A DNA stretch of 64,000 nt, taken from NCBI RefSeq assembly GCF_056712565.1, contig NZ_CM160072.1; one strand, given 5' to 3'. The notes beneath the pieces were generated by a model, which was not told the origin of the DNA, ran no database searches, and was given only the letters and a program-made list of their open reading frames with translations. Made by a program: the position numbers and the translations under genes. This document shows, piece after piece, positions 10,040 to 62,926 of this stretch. Every line of letters starts with the position of its first letter. Within the stretch, counting starts at the first letter, position 1.

Positions 10040-11108
10040 ACGCCACCGTGTACAGTTGTAAAAAAAAGAGAGGCACACCCAGATAAGTATGCCTGCAATC
10101 AGAACGTTATCGATGTAATCTCATTATCTCATTAATAAGATTTTTTGAATAGTAGTTCTACGCAACAGATTAAATATGAACTATTTATTGTGCAGCTTTT
10201 CTACAAGTCATTTTTAATGCGTGTTTTTATCTACTATAATGTGAAAAAAATAAATATTAAAACTATGAGTGACAGGTCGTGTGGGATGTGTATTACGTCT
10301 AATGCTTTAGTAATTTTTTATTATTTCTGAGATATTTAACATCATTTCCTGTGAGATTGTCTTGTTGTGTATCTAATTGATTTTAATTTTGTTTTTTTTG
10401 ATGCATAAATTTGGATGATAGAAAGTAAGATTAGCTTAATATCAATGATATGAATTTATAAATACATATTGTTGCAAGGTGTTCTTTACTTTTTTGGTCG
10501 TTAGTAAATCATTGTTAATGGGTTCTGTTCATAAATTAAAAATATTCATTTAAATGATTTTTACTTTTTGTATATCTCAATTTGTTTATTTTGCATTCAT
10601 TTGATGGAGAGTATTCCAACACTTTTTATTTTTCGCAAAAAACTTATTAACAACTTTTTATTATCAATTGAAAATTAATGTAAACTAAAATGTTAGCGAA
10701 GCGATAATCTTGTGCTAAAAAATATTTAAGCATGATGATTAATTAAAGAAGAGTAAAAATAAATCGCTGCTAATAAATTATACGAACCGTGTTTAAAGCT
10801 CCATGTGGTTTTGGTCTGACTTATTTTTGTACTCGTTACAAGAACCCTTTTCGTACATGCTAACCGTGAGCGGGAATGAACAGGTAACCATAGCCAGGAA
10901 CATTAGCGGCGTAATTCTTAAGCTGAGTGGTATTTCATCTGTAGTTTATCTGTGTATGCATAGCACCTTCATCAGCCAGATTGAGCAAGTCAGCTTAGAA
11001 TTTGCTGGTGAGATTGTCACGATGAAGCATGAGAGTTACCTCAGTGTTTTATATAAGGATTCGGTCCTCATAGTAGAACGGTAACTCTCAATCTGATAGG
11101 TTCCTGAG

Positions 11109-12797
11109 TCAGTTCACATCACGACTCATTTTTTTCGCTCTCACCGGCATCCCATTTGCCACAAAATATCTTGCCGTGCTCCTCGGCAACGCATCCTTCC
11201 CGCGAATCATATCCGCCATTTTCTCGCCAATCATAATCGTCGTGGCGTTCAAATTGCCGGTGATAATCTGCGGCATAATTGACGCATCCACCACGCGCAG
11301 GCCTTCCAGCCCGTGTACGCGGCCTTCGGCGTCAACCACTGCCATCTCGTCATAACCCATTTTGCAGGTACCGCACGGGTGGAAGGCGGTTTCGGCGTGG
11401 TTACGCACGAACTCATCGAGCTGCTCATCCGTCTGGCATTCGACACCGGGGCTGATTTCGCGGCCACGATACTGATCCAGCGCCGGTTGATGCATGATCT
11501 CCCGGGTGATGCGAATTGCGTCGCGGAACTCCTGCCAGTCCTGCTCGTGCGACATGTAGTTAAACAGAATCGCCGGATGCTGGTGCGGGTCGCGGGATTT
11601 AATCCGCACATGCCCACGGCTTGGCGAGCGCATCGATCCGACGTGGCACTGGAAGCCGTGCTCTTTCACTGCGTTCGAGCCGTTATAGTTAATCGCCACT
11701 GGCAGGAAATGGTACTGAATATTCGGCCACGCAAATTCCTCACGGCTGCGAATAAATCCGCCTGCTTCAAAGTGGTTGCTGGCACCAACGCCGGTGCCGC
11801 CAAACAGCCACTCCGCACCGATTTTCGGCTGATTCCACCACTGCAGGGCAGGGTAGAGGGAAACCGGTTCTTTGCACTCATATTGCAGATACATCTCCAG
11901 GTGATCCTGAAGATTTTCGCCGACGCCAGGTAATTCATGCACCAGCGGAATATCAAACTCCGCCAGCAGTTCAGCGTTGCCGACGCCGGAGCGTTGCAGG
12001 ATCTGCGGTGAAGCAATCGCGCCTGCACATAACAGCACTTCTTTATTCGCCGCCGCGCGGGTCGGAATGGTGCTGTCGCCTTCCAGCCACTCGACGCCCA
12101 CCGCGCGTTTGCCGTCAAAAAAGATGTGATCGGTCATGGCGTGAGTACGAATGGTCAGGTTAGGGCGCGATTTGGCCTGATCGAGATAGCCACGCGCGGT
12201 GCTGGCGCGACGGCCATGCGGCGTGACGGTGCGATCCATCGGGCCAAAACCTTCCTGCTGATAGCCGTTGAGATCGTCCGTGCGCGGGTAGCCCGCCTGC
12301 ACGCCCGCTTCAATCATCGCTTCAAACAGCGGATTGACGCCGGGTTTGGAGGTGGTGACGCTCACCGGGCCATCACCGCCGTGGTAGTCGTTCTCGCCCA
12401 CATCGCGAGTCTCGGCCTTGCGATAGTAGGGCAGGCAGTCGAGATAACTCCAGTTCTCCAGACCAGGTGCTTGTGCCCAGTTATCGAGATCCAGCGCATT
12501 GCCACGGATGTAGCACATACCGTTGATCAGCGATGAACCGCCCAGACCTTTGCCGCGTCCGCACTCCATGCGGCGGTTGTTCATAAACGGTTCGGGTTCC
12601 GTCTCATAGGCCCAGTTGTAGCGTTTGCCCTGTAGCGGGAACGCCAGCGCGGCGGGCATCTGGGTGCGGAAGTCAAAGCGATAGTCCGGGCCGCCTGCTT
12701 CAAGCAGCAGCACGGTTGTGTTCGGATCTTCAGTCAGACGGGTAGCGAGAACGTTGCCGGCTGAGCCGGCACCAATAATGATGTAGTCAAATTGCAA
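11109..12797 (-). CDS. betA: Choline dehydrogenase BetA (GMC oxidoreductase, FAD-binding)
   Basis: N-terminal GAGSAG FAD motif; apparent TTG start at 12797 with AGGAGG 5 nt upstream; the ORF-track ATG at 12842 would lie inside betB. Confidence 0.9.
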
Positions 12798-47395: not shown

Positions 47396-48694
<1,299 letters not shown>

Positions 48695-56480: not shown

Positions 56481-57254
56481 TCAGAATTTCCAGGTCAGAT
56501 GGGCTGCAAGTTGCAGACCGTTATAATCATCGGTTGGGGTGTCGTACCACACTTTACCTGCCGTCAACCCGAGATTAAGTTGCTCAGTCAGCGGTTGAAT
56601 ACGTTGCAAACTGATGCTCTTCATGCTGCCGTAGCGTGTTTCTGGCGTCCAGTCGTAGGTGTAAGCACCTGTTCCGCGGCTTAGCCATAGTTGCGTGTAA
56701 CCAGTGCCGCGCGGGTCATTCAGACGCACGGAAATCATATTGCTGTAACTACCACCTGCATCGCTGGAGTCATAATGGGTATAGCGATAGCTGGTGATCA
56801 CCGGGCCAGTATAGAGTGATATGCCACCTTGCCAGGCATCGACTTCGACATCATCGTAATATTTAGTGTAGCGATAACCGGTCGTGAAAAGCGTTTTTGG
56901 CAACAGGGCCAGGTTAATATCCTGACGAAAATCCTGGCGGGCAAAGACCGGCGTATTATCCGCAAAGGCAATACCCGTTCGGGTTGTCAGCCAGTTATTC
57001 CATTTGTACCAGACTGCACCCTGGCCGCGAGTGGCATTGAAATGTTCAGTTTCATAATCACGACGCCCCTGGGAAAGATTAAAAAGCAGCGTTGCGTTTT
57101 CAACTTTCGCCACCAGTTCAGCATACGCTAAATTACGGTTGCCATGATCGCCAGAATAATCGGTAAAATCGTAGCCCGCGGTAATGGAAGTTAACCCGGC
57201 ATAAACGGGTAATGCGCTAAAAATTGCCGCCGCTAATAACGTCCGTTTTATCAT
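56481..57254 (-). CDS. yaiO: Outer-membrane beta-barrel protein YaiO
   Basis: 257 aa with signal peptide; ends with aromatic residue (WKF). Confidence 0.9.
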   Translation of the reverse strand: MIKRTLLAAAIFSALPVYAGLTSITAGYDFTDYSGDHGNRNLAYAELVAKVENATLLFNLSQGRRDYETEHFNATRGQGAVWYKWNNWLTTRTGIAFADNTPVFARQDFRQDINLALLPKTLFTTGYRYTKYYDDVEVDAWQGGISLYTGPVITSYRYTHYDSSDAGGSYSNMISVRLNDPRGTGYTQLWLSRGTGAYTYDWTPETRYGSMKSISLQRIQPLTEQLNLGLTAGKVWYDTPTDDYNGLQLAAHLTWKF

Positions 57255-57255
57255 T

Positions 57256-57948
57256 TTAATCTCCTGTACGGATAAGTTCTTGTCGGAGTGAATAAGTTCC
57301 GGTAGGTAAATTACGTTCTACAATCACGCGCGGGCCAAGTTGCGTGTTCGGGGAAATAATTCGCCCAGGCAAAATAATAACTTGTACGCCAAGGCGTGAA
57401 CGCTGCCCGATATAACAACCTAATTTATCGCATCCGGTAGCGATAATTCCATCTGGAGTTCGAACAGACACGGGCTGTTCATCCAGACGATGATTACTGG
57501 TTCGTACTTGTGCGCCCAAATATGCCTGGTTTGCAACTACCGAGTCGGCAATAAAGCATTGCGGACCAATCGTGGCTTCCGCTTCAATAACCGCATTTTT
57601 AATTTCGGTGGCAAAACCAATTCTTACGCCATTGCTGATTATTGTGCCAGGACGAATAAACGCATAATTACCTATTAGGCAGTTTGCGCCAATCACTACC
57701 GGACCCTGAATAACGGCACCGTGGCAAATACGGGTATTCGCGCCGATAACAACCTCACCGGCACTTTCATCAATAATCACCTGGTCTGCAATCTGAATAT
57801 TTTTCTCTTTAACATTAAGCTTCAGATAGTTTTTCAGTTCCTGTGACAGAAGGGTGGGAATAAGCGGTTGACACTTCCACCAGTGCGGAATAGCGGGTGG
57901 GTTTGTCGCGCTGAGGTTCGCGTCCAGTAAAAAAGGCAATAAGTCCAT
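57256..57948 (-). CDS. yaiX: Hexapeptide-repeat acyl/acetyltransferase YaiX, apparently intact; start uncertain
   Basis: Left-handed beta-helix repeats; any ATG start (57948 or 57966) overlaps the yaiP 3' end by more than 130 bp. Confidence 0.65.
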   Translation of the reverse strand: MDLLPFLLDANLSATNPPAIPHWWKCQPLIPTLLSQELKNYLKLNVKEKNIQIADQVIIDESAGEVVIGANTRICHGAVIQGPVVIGANCLIGNYAFIRPGTIISNGVRIGFATEIKNAVIEAEATIGPQCFIADSVVANQAYLGAQVRTSNHRLDEQPVSVRTPDGIIATGCDKLGCYIGQRSRLGVQVIILPGRIISPNTQLGPRVIVERNLPTGTYSLRQELIRTGD

Positions 57949-59071
57949 AAATAATCCAGATGGCATAAGCTAATAATACATACACAACGGAAAGCGGTGC
58001 TAAAGGCACCAACAACCAGCAACGATGAAACCAGGCGCTAAATGCACCAATAACACAAACTACGCCGACCCAGATAAGCGGGAACATTGCCAACACCACA
58101 CCATGTGGCCCGGTGGTGATGAATTCATTAAACCAGGTAGTGAGATAAATACCAACGCCATAAAGCACAACCAACAGCATAGGAAATATACTGAAGATAC
58201 CGAAGCGGCTAAATAAAAGTCTTTTATGCAGGCGCATACAGACCGCGTAGCCCACAATCCAACGCCGCCAGCGGCGCCACTCCTCACGCGGACTGTTACA
58301 TTCCTGTGGGTATACGATGCAGCGATTCGCCTGCCGAATACGGTAGCCGTTTGCCACCAATGTCCAGGTGAGATCAAGGTCTTCGACTTTAGTACGATCC
58401 GAGAAACCGAACTTACGCAATACATCAGTACGGAACATCCCGCAGGCACCGCTGATGATAAACGGTGCGCCGCCCAGAAGCTGCTGTAGCGTGCGCTTCA
58501 TAACAATCATCGGCAACTTTACGGTCGCGCGGATGTGTAGCTGCTGTAGCGTGCGCTTCATAACAATCATCGGCAACTTTACGGTCGCGCGGATGTGTGG
58601 TAACAGACCCGCGCCTTTCAACGCAGTAGAGGGAATGCCGCCTACGGCATCAGCGCCACGCTCAATTTCCGCCAGCATATAGCCCATTCCGTCTTGATCG
58701 GGCGGAACATAGGTGTCGGCATCACTTAAAAAAACCTGATCGCAGGTGGCGTAATTGAGGCCATTCATCAGCGCACCACCTTTACCGGTATTTTTTTGCG
58801 TGACGGCAACAAAGCGGTCGCCCCATTTGCGTTTGACTTCCGCCATGACCGCTTCGGTATTGTCCATGGAGCCGTCGTTAACGCAAATTACCCGGCAAAA
58901 ATAAGGGTTACGCAGCAGATTATCCAGTGACTGCGCCAGACACGGGCCTTCGTTATAAGCAGGTATAATGGCGTCAATACAGCCTTTCTTTTGGCTGGGC
59001 TTACGCCTTAACGTACTCAGAAACCATAGCAATATTGCTACGGCCATACATATAAAGATCCAGGTTTTCAT
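57815..59071 (-). CDS. yaiP: Family-2 glycosyltransferase YaiP, carrying an in-frame 20-aa tandem duplication
   Basis: 418 aa (398 expected without the duplication); glycosyltransferase-like N-terminus, C-terminal membrane segments. Confidence 0.85.
   Translation of the reverse strand: MKTWIFICMAVAILLWFLSTLRRKPSQKKGCIDAIIPAYNEGPCLAQSLDNLLRNPYFCRVICVNDGSMDNTEAVMAEVKRKWGDRFVAVTQKNTGKGGALMNGLNYATCDQVFLSDADTYVPPDQDGMGYMLAEIERGADAVGGIPSTALKGAGLLPHIRATVKLPMIVMKRTLQQLHIRATVKLPMIVMKRTLQQLLGGAPFIISGACGMFRTDVLRKFGFSDRTKVEDLDLTWTLVANGYRIRQANRCIVYPQECNSPREEWRRWRRWIVGYAVCMRLHKRLLFSRFGIFSIFPMLLVVLYGVGIYLTTWFNEFITTGPHGVVLAMFPLIWVGVVCVIGAFSAWFHRCWLLVPLAPLSVVYVLLAYAIWIIYGLIAFFTGREPQRDKPTRYSALVEVSTAYSHPSVTGTEKLSEA
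58481..58600. repeat. Tandem duplication of a 60-bp unit (units differ at 1 position) inside yaiP
   Basis: ctgctgtagcgtgcgcttcataacaatcatcggcaactttacggtcgcgcggatgtgt occurs twice consecutively. Confidence 0.9.
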
Positions 59072-59080
59072 GCAATTTGC

Positions 59081-59767
59081 TCAAAGAATCATTTTATGAA
59101 TAACAAAACCTTCACCCAGATCGCTATTGACCTGTTGCCCGCGAAATTGAGCAACTGCACGCAGACGCTCCGGGCGCATATAATCTCGCTGGCTCTGACT
59201 TTTATGTTTTTTTAACGCAGTCAGTTTAAGAGAAAAATATTCTTCTTTCACGGATTCAAAAACCTGAGGCATAAATGAAAGCCAGGTACTTGGTGTTTCA
59301 TAGCCGAGAATTTGCGGAATAGCGCGACAGGCAACCATTGAGGCTTGATAGACTGCAAGATGATCCTGATGGCGGTCAGCATCATGCATGGTATATACAC
59401 GTATAATTTCAACATCAGAGGGAATTTGATTTTTTATGATGTTTTCCAGGGCAGAAATCATATCATTGAGCTGTAAATGAGCGCGGGTGTCAGCAAAATT
59501 AAGATGAATAGTTTGGTGGCACCCTAATATCTTTAGAGCGTTGCGTGATTCTTCGTGGCGATCGATTATTCCATCTACGCCAGAATTACCGGTAGTCATC
59601 ACTACGGTAGCAATATAAATTCCTTTTTGCGCAAGGCGAGCTAGCGATGCGCCACAGCCTAATTCTATATCGTCAGGATGCGCGCCAATGGCAAGGATAC
59701 CCTTTCTTTTATTTGCCGAAGAAAGGATCGCTGAATCTAAAACCTTATCCACTTTATGACACTCCAT
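59081..59767 (-). CDS. yaiS: PIG-L/LmbE-family deacetylase YaiS
   Basis: AIGAHPDDIELGCG motif near the N-terminus; start may lie further in. Confidence 0.8.
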   Translation of the reverse strand: MECHKVDKVLDSAILSSANKRKGILAIGAHPDDIELGCGASLARLAQKGIYIATVVMTTGNSGVDGIIDRHEESRNALKILGCHQTIHLNFADTRAHLQLNDMISALENIIKNQIPSDVEIIRVYTMHDADRHQDHLAVYQASMVACRAIPQILGYETPSTWLSFMPQVFESVKEEYFSLKLTALKKHKSQSQRDYMRPERLRAVAQFRGQQVNSDLGEGFVIHKMIL

Positions 59768-62102: not shown

Positions 62103-62926
62103 GTGTGCTCATTAATGAAAAACTGCATTCGCATCGGCTGAAATGGCGCTGGCCGCTCTCGCGTCAGGTGACCTTAAGCATTGGTACGTTAGCGGTTTTG
62201 CTCACTGTATGGTGGGCAGTCGCGGCGCTGCAACTGATTAGCCCGCTGTTTTTGCCGCCACCGCAACAGGTACTGGCAAAACTGCTCACCATTGCCGGGC
62301 CGCAGGGATTTATGGACGCCACGCTGTGGCAGCATCTGGCAGCCAGCCTGACGCGCATTGTGCTGGCGCTACTCGCGGCGGTGTTGATCGGTATTCCGGT
62401 CGGGATCGCCATGGGGCTAAGCCCGACGGTGCGCGGCATTCTGGATCCGATAATCGAGCTTTATCGTCCGGTGCCGCCGCTGGCTTATTTGCCGCTGATG
62501 GTGATCTGGTTTGGTATTGGCGAAACCTCGAAGATCTTACTGATCTATCTAGCGATTTTTGCGCCGGTGGCGATGTCGGCGCTGGCGGGGGTGAAAAGCG
62601 CGCAGCAGGTTCGCATTCGTGCCGCCCAGTCGCTGGGTGCCAGCCGTGCGCAGGTGCTGTGGTTTGTCATTTTGCCCGGCGCGCTGCCGGAAATCCTCAC
62701 CGGATTACGCATTGGTCTGGGTGTGGGCTGGTCTACGCTGGTGGCGGCGGAGCTGATTGCCGCAACGCGCGGTTTAGGATTTATGGTTCAGTCAGCGGGT
62801 GAATTTCTCGCGACTGACGTGGTGCTGGCGGGGATCGCGGTGATTGCGATTATCGCCTTTCTTTTAGAACTGGGTCTGCGCGCGTTACAGCGCCGCCTGA
62901 CGTCCTGGCATGGAGAAGTACAATGA
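62099..62926 (+). CDS. tauC: Taurine ABC transporter permease TauC
   Basis: 275-aa membrane protein overlapping the tauB stop. Confidence 0.95.

Follow-up and report, generated by a model that had tools for sequence, protein, structure and literature searches.

An inherited in-frame 60-bp tandem duplication in the glycosyltransferase gene yaiP of an Escherichia coli ST95 sub-lineage

The glycosyltransferase gene yaiP of E. coli contains, in one sub-lineage of sequence type ST95, an in-frame tandem duplication of 60 bp that is real and inherited and does not represent an artefact. The comparison of carrier genomes points to one origin, after which the allele was inherited vertically. With one, two or three copies, the site behaves like a slow minisatellite; it is to be regarded as a marker of its lineage that changes slowly and not as a fast switch. 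We favour, with considerable confidence, a joint explanation that comprises one duplication, vertical inheritance, slow minisatellite behaviour, and a neutral to hypomorphic allele that hitch-hikes as a marker of its lineage. ST95 strains belong to the extraintestinal-pathogenic E. coli and include K1 serotypes.

The window, i.e. the whole stretch of DNA that was analysed, comprises 64,000 nucleotides of contig NZ_CM160072.1 (assembly GCF_056712565.1). According to an exact string test, the sequences 58479-58538 and 58539-58598 are two identical, adjacent 60-bp units. Tandem Repeats Finder assigned to this array a period of 60, 2.0 copies, 100% matches, 0 indels, and a score of 240, and two identical adjacent 60-mers within 64 kb cannot be a matter of chance. 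At least two head-to-tail copies of one unit, as expected for a tandem duplication or a variable-number tandem repeat (VNTR), are thus present. An earlier note on this DNA had proposed an in-frame 60-bp tandem duplication inside this family-2 glycosyltransferase (GT2) gene, and this is borne out by two perfect units in the minus-strand ORF. However, the note had also reported that the units differ at one base. This apparent mismatch results from a phase shift of 2 nt: if the array is placed at 58481-58600, the last base of the two units differs (58539 A versus 58599 G). The features of the region are listed in Table 1.

Table 1. Position of the tandem array, its units, and the neighbouring genes in the window
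Feature	Position	Strand	Basis or remark
yaiO, outer-membrane beta-barrel protein, last gene of the yaiS-yaiP-yaiX-yaiO cluster	56481..57254	-	PF19413
yaiX-like hexapeptide-repeat (left-handed beta-helix) acetyltransferase, downstream gene	57256..57780	-	ORF list, annotation
yaiP CDS, 418 aa, RefSeq WP_024186107.1, membrane GT2 with synthase-like architecture	57815..59071	-	ORF, alignment, structure matches
Tandem array, two perfect 60-bp units in frame in yaiP	58479..58598	-	Tandem Repeats Finder, exact string test
Gene-distal DNA unit, approximately the second peptide copy (residues 179-198)	58479..58538	-	AlphaFold: predicted in native IF1 position
Gene-proximal DNA unit, approximately the first peptide copy (residues 159-178)	58539..58598	-	AlphaFold: predicted low-confidence loop and N-terminal helix extension
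yaiS-like PIG-L/LmbE-family deacetylase, upstream gene, same orientation	59081..59767	-	Intact 228-aa ORF

The ORF of 418 aa contains the segment HIRATVKLPMIVMKRTLQQL twice, at residues 159-178 and 179-198, which agrees with the 20-residue repeat described before. In the DNA, the junction is located within codon 178, where CTA is found in place of the original CTT. Because both triplets encode Leu, the two peptide copies are exact. As 60 is a multiple of three, the reading frame is always kept when the number of copies changes. Single-copy relatives encode a protein of 398 aa (WP_000860417.1); YaiP has therefore been lengthened to 418 aa with an intact frame, as had been stated. If the repeat is disregarded, yaiP of the window and its counterparts in classic ST95 strains, for example S88, APEC O1, and ATCC 11775, are 100% identical.

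An 80-nt query covering the junction split 5,426 complete E. coli genomes into two classes. A stricter junction-only query of 54 nt, which comprises 27 nt per side and cannot seed on single-copy genomes, matched exactly ten of the 5,426 genomes, at one place each. This comparison with yaiP from other E. coli, which the earlier note had suggested as a check, thus separates the carriers from the single-copy relatives; independent duplications in other lineages were not detected, as the junction-only query matched only these ten genomes of the clade. All ten carriers contain the exact unit twice in tandem and encode the same annotated protein of 418 aa. The human isolates originate from faeces (China), blood (USA, Australia, Thailand, and UK), and cerebrospinal fluid (Sweden), with a further human isolate from China; the animal isolates were obtained from a dog (Korea) and from chickens (Korea and Australia). 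The carriers are independent isolates from four continents and were deposited by several independent projects. The carrier SF-468, which belongs to the fimH-1 sublineage of ST95, was isolated between 2007 and 2010, and its PacBio assembly was polished with 300-bp MiSeq reads. In a collection of 15 billion proteins, the exact 418-aa protein was found on 209 contigs. It is indexed in 221 blocks, and contigs larger than 1 Mb occur in 32 of these. The allele is therefore already contained in sequence databases as an annotated protein, and no paper describing it was found in the literature searched.

A 39.3-kb alignment of the ten carriers, their seven nearest non-carriers, and the window was analysed. 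A SNP in iprA, located approximately 10 kb from the repeat, is a T in all ten carriers and a C in all seven nearest non-carriers. The iprA-T allele occurs in 11 of the 5,426 genomes, namely in the ten carriers and in AH19D088. In the latter genome, ykgG has been joined to tauA by an IS3-associated deletion, which comprises the whole prp-cod-lac-frm-yaiOXPS region. AH19D088 was considered as a revertant, because it possesses iprA-T without the junction; this was rejected, since yaiP is deleted altogether and the genome cannot be scored for copy number. The codA-T allele is present in 13 of the 5,426 genomes and unites the ten carriers with the single-copy sister strains ZJ3920, E16002 (APEC), and E18006. 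Among the carriers, HS13-1, APEC 16-1068, and AF6 have three SNPs in common, and SF-468, MS15052, 10035004-3, and UID2404240036 share a 1-bp deletion in lacY and one SNP. The basal haplotype is retained by Z0117EC0054, E18055, and the window. The monophyly of the carriers is thus based on one perfectly co-segregating SNP and on local substructure within approximately 40 kb. Given the distribution of the iprA and codA alleles and the nested SNPs of the carriers, the duplication is best explained by a single origin on the branch leading to this sub-lineage. The copy-number states are heritable and track the phylogeny, as is expected for a VNTR. Over 16,186 bp, which include a SNP at 62903 that is otherwise private, the window is identical to a 5.12-Mb contig of GCA_027274065.1. 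A further 24.8 kb of the window match many ST95 genomes completely or almost completely.

With respect to the founding event, the junction exhibits no microhomology (0 bp), and around the two breakpoints no more than 10 of 24 positions match in register. Slippage between short direct repeats at the flanks was therefore rejected as the origin, and the slippage mentioned in the earlier note is probably not applicable in its classical form. Both breakpoints are located at predicted hairpin loops. The corresponding folds are no better than those of shuffled sequence (z -0.2 to -1.7), and a hairpin-guided origin is thus unsupported. We infer that the founding event was an illegitimate, homology-independent duplication. 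The situation differs for the existing array: since the copies are perfect direct repeats of 60 bp, the site is now minisatellite-like, and repeats of this kind would be expected to gain a third copy by slippage or unequal exchange. In the scenario that we propose, a single homology-independent duplication of 60 bp in yaiP would have occurred in the ancestor of one ST95 sub-lineage. It would then have been transmitted vertically, while the sub-lineage diversified and spread worldwide in humans, dogs, and poultry. Replication slippage or unequal sister-strand exchange would occasionally add a unit; the removal of a unit by the same processes is presumed as well, and none was seen.

A protein with three copies (438 aa) was built hypothetically and then looked up. 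It was found on 13 contigs, including the chromosome OZ040249.1 (5.10 Mb). The loci of six of these contigs were fetched, and all six contain three perfect tandem units on the basal carrier haplotype. The iprA-T allele of the clade is present in all four fetched loci that cover this site, and three of the six have private changes. As judged from iprA-T, where covered, and from the basal carrier haplotype, the third copy arose inside the two-copy clade and is itself inherited. The plesiomorphic local haplotype shared by the six loci fits one or several origins of the third copy. Three-copy alleles account for approximately 4% of the contigs of the clade, which is an approximate count from public drafts, and represent the one expansion state seen. 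Together with the single copy of the sister ST95 strains, related strains are thus polymorphic for one, two, and three copies, as is typical of a VNTR. The same protein cluster contains two- and three-copy alleles that are cut at contig ends, and N-terminal fragments of 157, 164, and 196 aa. These fragments end at or inside the array. Short-read assemblies thus sometimes break at this site and can break or collapse arrays of at least three copies, and public copy counts are therefore approximate. In addition, 104 draft contigs all end at nt 710 of yaiP, which may reflect either an IS insertion in a sub-clade or a fork in the assembly. Single-copy revertants were found in none of the ten scorable genomes of the clade, which corresponds to an upper 95% bound of approximately 26% on the frequency of revertants. 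Of the length variability and reversion that had been anticipated, the former is thus supported in part, namely by the 438-aa allele, which belongs to the same clade in all six fetched cases; frequent switching is not evident, and reversion was not observed.

yaiP is part of a cluster with yaiS, yaiX, and yaiO. The yaiS-like gene is 223 aa in length where it is annotated as intact. PGAP also assigns a longer start to the yaiX-like gene (594 bp), which runs into the end of yaiP. Other lineages often have a truncated yaiP: a version of 250 aa, for example, was found on 185 contigs and one of 276 aa on 82 contigs. These 'partial' YaiP proteins were considered as assembly breaks caused by the repeat. 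This was rejected, as they are single-copy alleles from other lineages that are truncated elsewhere. The frequent truncations of yaiP and the deletion of the whole region in one member of the clade suggest that the yaiS-yaiP-yaiX-yaiO cluster is dispensable. A literature search on yaiP, on the yaiOXPS cluster, on yaiP and ST95, and on yaiP and tandem repeats yielded nothing functional and no description of the allele.

The sequence and the predicted structure of YaiP were compared with those of related enzymes. YaiP matches the Pfam families PF00535, PF13641, and PF13632 (family-2 glycosyltransferase). An alignment of 55 homologues with 20-98% identity showed that residues D66, D70, G96-K97, D117-x-D119, G188, E210-D211, and W251 (wild-type numbering) are invariant; R250 is near-invariant. 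At the level of sequence, this is the signature of a synthase-type GT2 enzyme, and the GT-A domain possesses the D, DxD, (T)ED, and Q/RxxRW motifs of processive GT2 synthases. AlphaFold predicted the 398-aa protein with a mean pLDDT of 88.5; in this model, residues 159-178 constitute most of a 25-residue helix (156-180). The best solved folds retrieved by Foldseek were 8smn, 7sp7, 6yv7, and 4p00 (probability 1.00, TM 0.60-0.66); the matches comprise the hyaluronan synthases from Xenopus and a Chlorella virus (TM 0.66), PcManGT, and BcsA (TM 0.60). The predicted model contains interface helices and a transmembrane (TM) bundle similar to those of solved synthases.

In chitin synthase, the interface helix IF1 is located between the DxD-equivalent and the gate loop and carries a QHFEY motif; IF1 and the QxxRW helix IF2 flank the channel entrance (PMC9556331). 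In our alignment of 55 sequences, distant homologues contain Q, E, and Y with a frequency of 92% each at the positions of YaiP R161, V164, and K165. YaiP orthologues conserve R161 (97%), K165 (100%), R173, and Q176. Based on the QxxEY alignment and the order of motifs, the duplicated segment 159-178 is taken as most of the IF1-equivalent helix. Amphipathicity was considered as evidence for a membrane interface; however, the hydrophobic moment is not significant in comparison to shuffled sequences (p ~0.1), and the segment was therefore assigned to IF1 by the two criteria named above. The stretch of residues 148-190 comprises 40-44 residues in all 55 homologues. Among the best 120 homologues, none is longer than 403 aa, with the exception of one fusion protein. 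As judged from these sequences, an insertion of 20 or 40 residues at IF1 is without precedent in the family.

For the 418-aa allele, AlphaFold (pLDDT 87.9) predicts the rest of the fold at the same confidence as for the 398-aa protein. The second copy adopts the native position as part of a helix comprising residues 168-200 and is contiguous with the downstream LGGAPFIISGACG strand. The first copy is modelled as a helix extension and a loop, with pLDDT values below 50 at residues 157-163 and means of 54, 53, and 72 for blocks of ten residues. Confidence is low only at residues ~151-170 and in the C-terminal tail (~398-418), which has low confidence in the wild type as well. According to the model, the extra copy of IF1 would be pushed out as a floppy extension, and the copy beside the downstream strand would hold the native place. 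The consequences for YaiP can be read in two ways. The insertion is perhaps tolerated, because the rest of the model is of unchanged confidence. It is perhaps not harmless, because the length of the region (40-44 residues) does not vary across the homologues. The function of YaiP may thus be retained, weakened, or lost, and the net effect is probably neutral to hypomorphic. Because this holds for a cluster that is often lost in E. coli, the allele is best interpreted as a marker that hitch-hikes with its lineage rather than as an adaptation.

Alternatively, the duplication might inactivate or alter the YaiP synthase and might have been selected in the ST95 sub-lineage, for example because a polysaccharide at the cell surface that is recognised by host immunity or by phages is removed or modified. 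In line with such a benefit, the insertion is located in the conserved IF1 at the channel entrance, in a region of otherwise invariant length, the allele is globally spread and persistent (SF-468 dates from 2007-2010, and the other carriers stem from several independent projects), and a further expansion to three copies has been kept as well. However, a neutral marker that hitch-hikes in a successful clone would spread globally to the same extent. Only one origin was seen, with no convergent duplication in the other 5,416 complete genomes, and the literature search gave nothing functional on the yaiP cluster. Moreover, yaiP is simply truncated in other lineages, an observation that suggests relaxed selection rather than a benefit specific to this allele. 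We consider selection for the duplication unlikely, and the neutral to hypomorphic marker remains the preferred reading. A related idea, to which we assign about half of that small likelihood, is that the alleles with one, two, and three copies form an allelic series in which the length of IF1 tunes or gates a putative YaiS-YaiP-YaiX-YaiO exopolysaccharide machine. If true, this series would be a reversible, in-frame variation of protein length at the surface of the ST95 sub-lineage, unlike phase variation that is based on frameshifts.

A contingency locus, in which the copy number would change rapidly and reversibly within populations and YaiP activity would be switched in frame, is very improbable. 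It is true that perfect direct repeats of 60 bp are substrates for slippage and that the states with one, two, and three copies all occur in nature. However, each of the ten complete genomes of the clade has exactly two copies despite their divergence in SNPs. Likewise, a single local haplotype is common to the six fetched three-copy loci (of 13 contigs), in agreement with a small number of events, and exact proteins with four, five, six, or seven copies were not found in the collection of 15 billion proteins. Furthermore, known phase-variable genes contain multi-copy tracts of 1-7 bp, whereas the unit in yaiP has 60 bp, is present in two to three copies, and never shifts the frame; a short unit in a long tract whose length alters frame or promoter spacing is thus not found here. 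Least probable, to a degree that makes it negligible, is the assembly artefact raised by the earlier note, i.e. a single-copy sequence in which the assembler duplicated the unit: nothing was found in its favour beyond the prior possibility that applies to any short tandem repeat in an assembly, and the feature is neither confined to one assembly or platform nor irreproducible, given the identical junction in ten independent complete genomes from different laboratories, the 209 contigs, 221 index blocks, and 32 blocks with contigs over 1 Mb for the exact protein, the MiSeq reads of SF-468 that span the 120-bp array, and the perfect co-segregation with an unlinked SNP 10 kb away.

As a slowly changing marker, the junction is of practical use. 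It is specific for a globally distributed ST95 sub-lineage, which was isolated from human blood and CSF, dogs, and poultry, and can be sized by PCR: an amplicon over 58400-58700 would have a length of 241, 301, or 361 bp for one, two, or three copies, respectively. The three-copy state splits the sub-lineage further. The array is also a warning that short-read assemblies may break or collapse at such a site. Finally, the natural series of one, two, and three copies of IF1 offers a probe for the tolerance of a synthase-like enzyme at its channel entrance.

A comparison with known systems places these findings in context. Like hyaluronan synthase, BcsA, chitin synthase, and PgaC/IcaA, YaiP contains the GT-A signature (D, DxD, ED, RW), and it shares with processive GT2 synthases an N-terminal TM helix, a C-terminal TM bundle, and three interface-type helices in the predicted structure. 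The helix that is duplicated corresponds in the alignment to IF1 with its QxxEY motif; YaiP orthologues, in contrast, contain RxxVK in place of QxxEY, and a doubled IF1 is absent from the sample of 55 sequences. The layout of the locus is reminiscent of pgaABCD, with genes for a deacetylase and an outer-membrane barrel in the neighbourhood of yaiP. The best family match of YaiP is the NCBIfam equivalog TIGR03937 (PgaC/IcaA), with a score of 99.7 bits. This value is far below the cut-off of 422.3, and the assignment as a PgaC/IcaA poly-beta-1,6-GlcNAc synthase was therefore rejected; by sequence, YaiP is related to PgaC without being a PgaC.

With regard to the duplication, FLT3-ITD in human leukaemia is likewise an in-frame head-to-tail duplication of a short segment, which leaves the rest of the protein intact and may change regulation or activity. 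The similarity to yaiP is an analogy only, as the two cases differ in kingdom, protein class, and consequence. Simple-sequence contingency loci of Neisseria, Haemophilus, and Campylobacter consist of units of 1-7 bp and mediate phase variation. They have in common with yaiP a repeat-mediated change of copy number in a gene that is likely involved in surface carbohydrate synthesis; in contrast to these loci, yaiP shows no sign of rapid switching. The closest correspondence exists with intragenic VNTRs such as the MIRU-VNTR of Mycobacterium tuberculosis and the MLVA loci of E. coli. These are head-to-tail repeats of tens of bp, which are often in frame, change by slippage or unequal exchange, and have a strain-variable, clonally inherited copy number that can be used for typing. 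The yaiP array shares with them the tandem copies, the copy-number polymorphism, and the clonal inheritance. It was not encountered in published typing schemes in the literature searched. Compared to the MIRU-VNTR and MLVA loci, it is very young and small (two to three perfect copies), is restricted to one ST95 sub-lineage, and shows one expansion step and no contraction. Thus, the yaiP duplication reveals no new mechanism; it is mainly a useful lineage marker and otherwise biologically ordinary.

In other E. coli lineages, single-copy yaiP is often truncated (protein records P0004, P0005, P0008 and P0009). The truncated single-copy forms include one of 250 aa on 185 contigs and one of 276 aa on 82 contigs, and further lengths exist as well. 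A 481-aa product (P0045), which represents a protein cluster of 15 members, combines the C-terminal GT2 family of YaiP (PF13632) with hexapeptide-repeat (LbH) families. In K-12, yaiX is disrupted. The truncated alleles, the 481-aa product and the disruption of yaiX suggest that the yaiS-yaiP-yaiX-yaiO cluster is frequently decaying.

The two-copy allele is also recorded in a partial form, P0136, a 237-aa YaiP on 104 draft contigs. All of these contigs stop at exactly nt 710 of yaiP, 118 nt past the array, and up to this point the contig sequence is that of the window (L025, DATSYI010000009.1; L026, DBJUAP010000009.1). A disruption at nt 710 was found in none of the 10 complete genomes of the clade. 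The common end point could reflect a deterministic assembler fork; alternatively, an IS may have inserted at this site in a sub-clade that is over-sampled.

Loss of the whole cluster was observed in AH19D088 (L018, NZ_CP196239.1), which belongs to the duplication clade and has the iprA-T allele. In this strain, ykgG is linked directly to tauA via an IS3-family element (locus 10199-11973), and everything that normally lies between the two is absent, including prp, cod, lac and frm as well as yaiO-yaiX-yaiP-yaiS. AH19D088 should be Lac-negative. The lacY gene of the window is intact. A 1-bp deletion at about window position 47776 shifts the lacY frame in the carriers SF-468, MS15052, 10035004-3 and UID2404240036 (L002, L004, L007 and L009), where the gene is annotated as a pseudogene. 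The single-copy sister strains ZJ3920 and APEC E16002 share a separate 1-bp deletion close to the 5' end (about window 48577), by which the lacY annotation is lengthened to 1287 bp.

At position 62903, near the tauC/tauD junction, the window contains a T; all 17 complete genomes compared contain a C. The T otherwise occurs only in L027 (GCA_027274065.1, JAPXBK010000001.1), whose sequence matches that of the window without a difference across 16,186 bp. Beyond hemB, L027 contains an IS3-family transposase gene at the place occupied in the other strains by the autotransporter gene and iprA.

Features of the yaiS-yaiP-yaiX-yaiO region (window coordinates)
Feature	Position	Strand	Remarks
Gene set: PIG-L deacetylase, synthase-like GT2, LbH acetyltransferase, outer-membrane barrel	56481-59767		
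yaiS-like PIG-L deacetylase ORF	59081-59767	minus	228 aa, intact in window
YkiC-family small protein WP_418885884.1, MNNKTFTQIAIDLLPAKLSNCTQTLRAHIISLALTFMFF	59096-59215	plus	39 aa; most PGAP annotations; inside yaiS-like ORF

The annotations of the yaiS-like locus are in conflict. The Pfam PIG-L domain comprises residues 25-146 of the window's ORF, and in one genome a 223-aa protein (WP_000362014.1) is annotated for it. In most PGAP annotations of DNA identical to it (loci compared: L001-L017), the ORF is instead a pseudogene "missing C-terminus", accompanied by the opposite-strand YkiC-family protein.

No functional account of the four-component gene set was found in the literature searched. 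By gene content, the set looks like a small module for the synthesis and export of an exopolysaccharide, analogous to pgaABCD.
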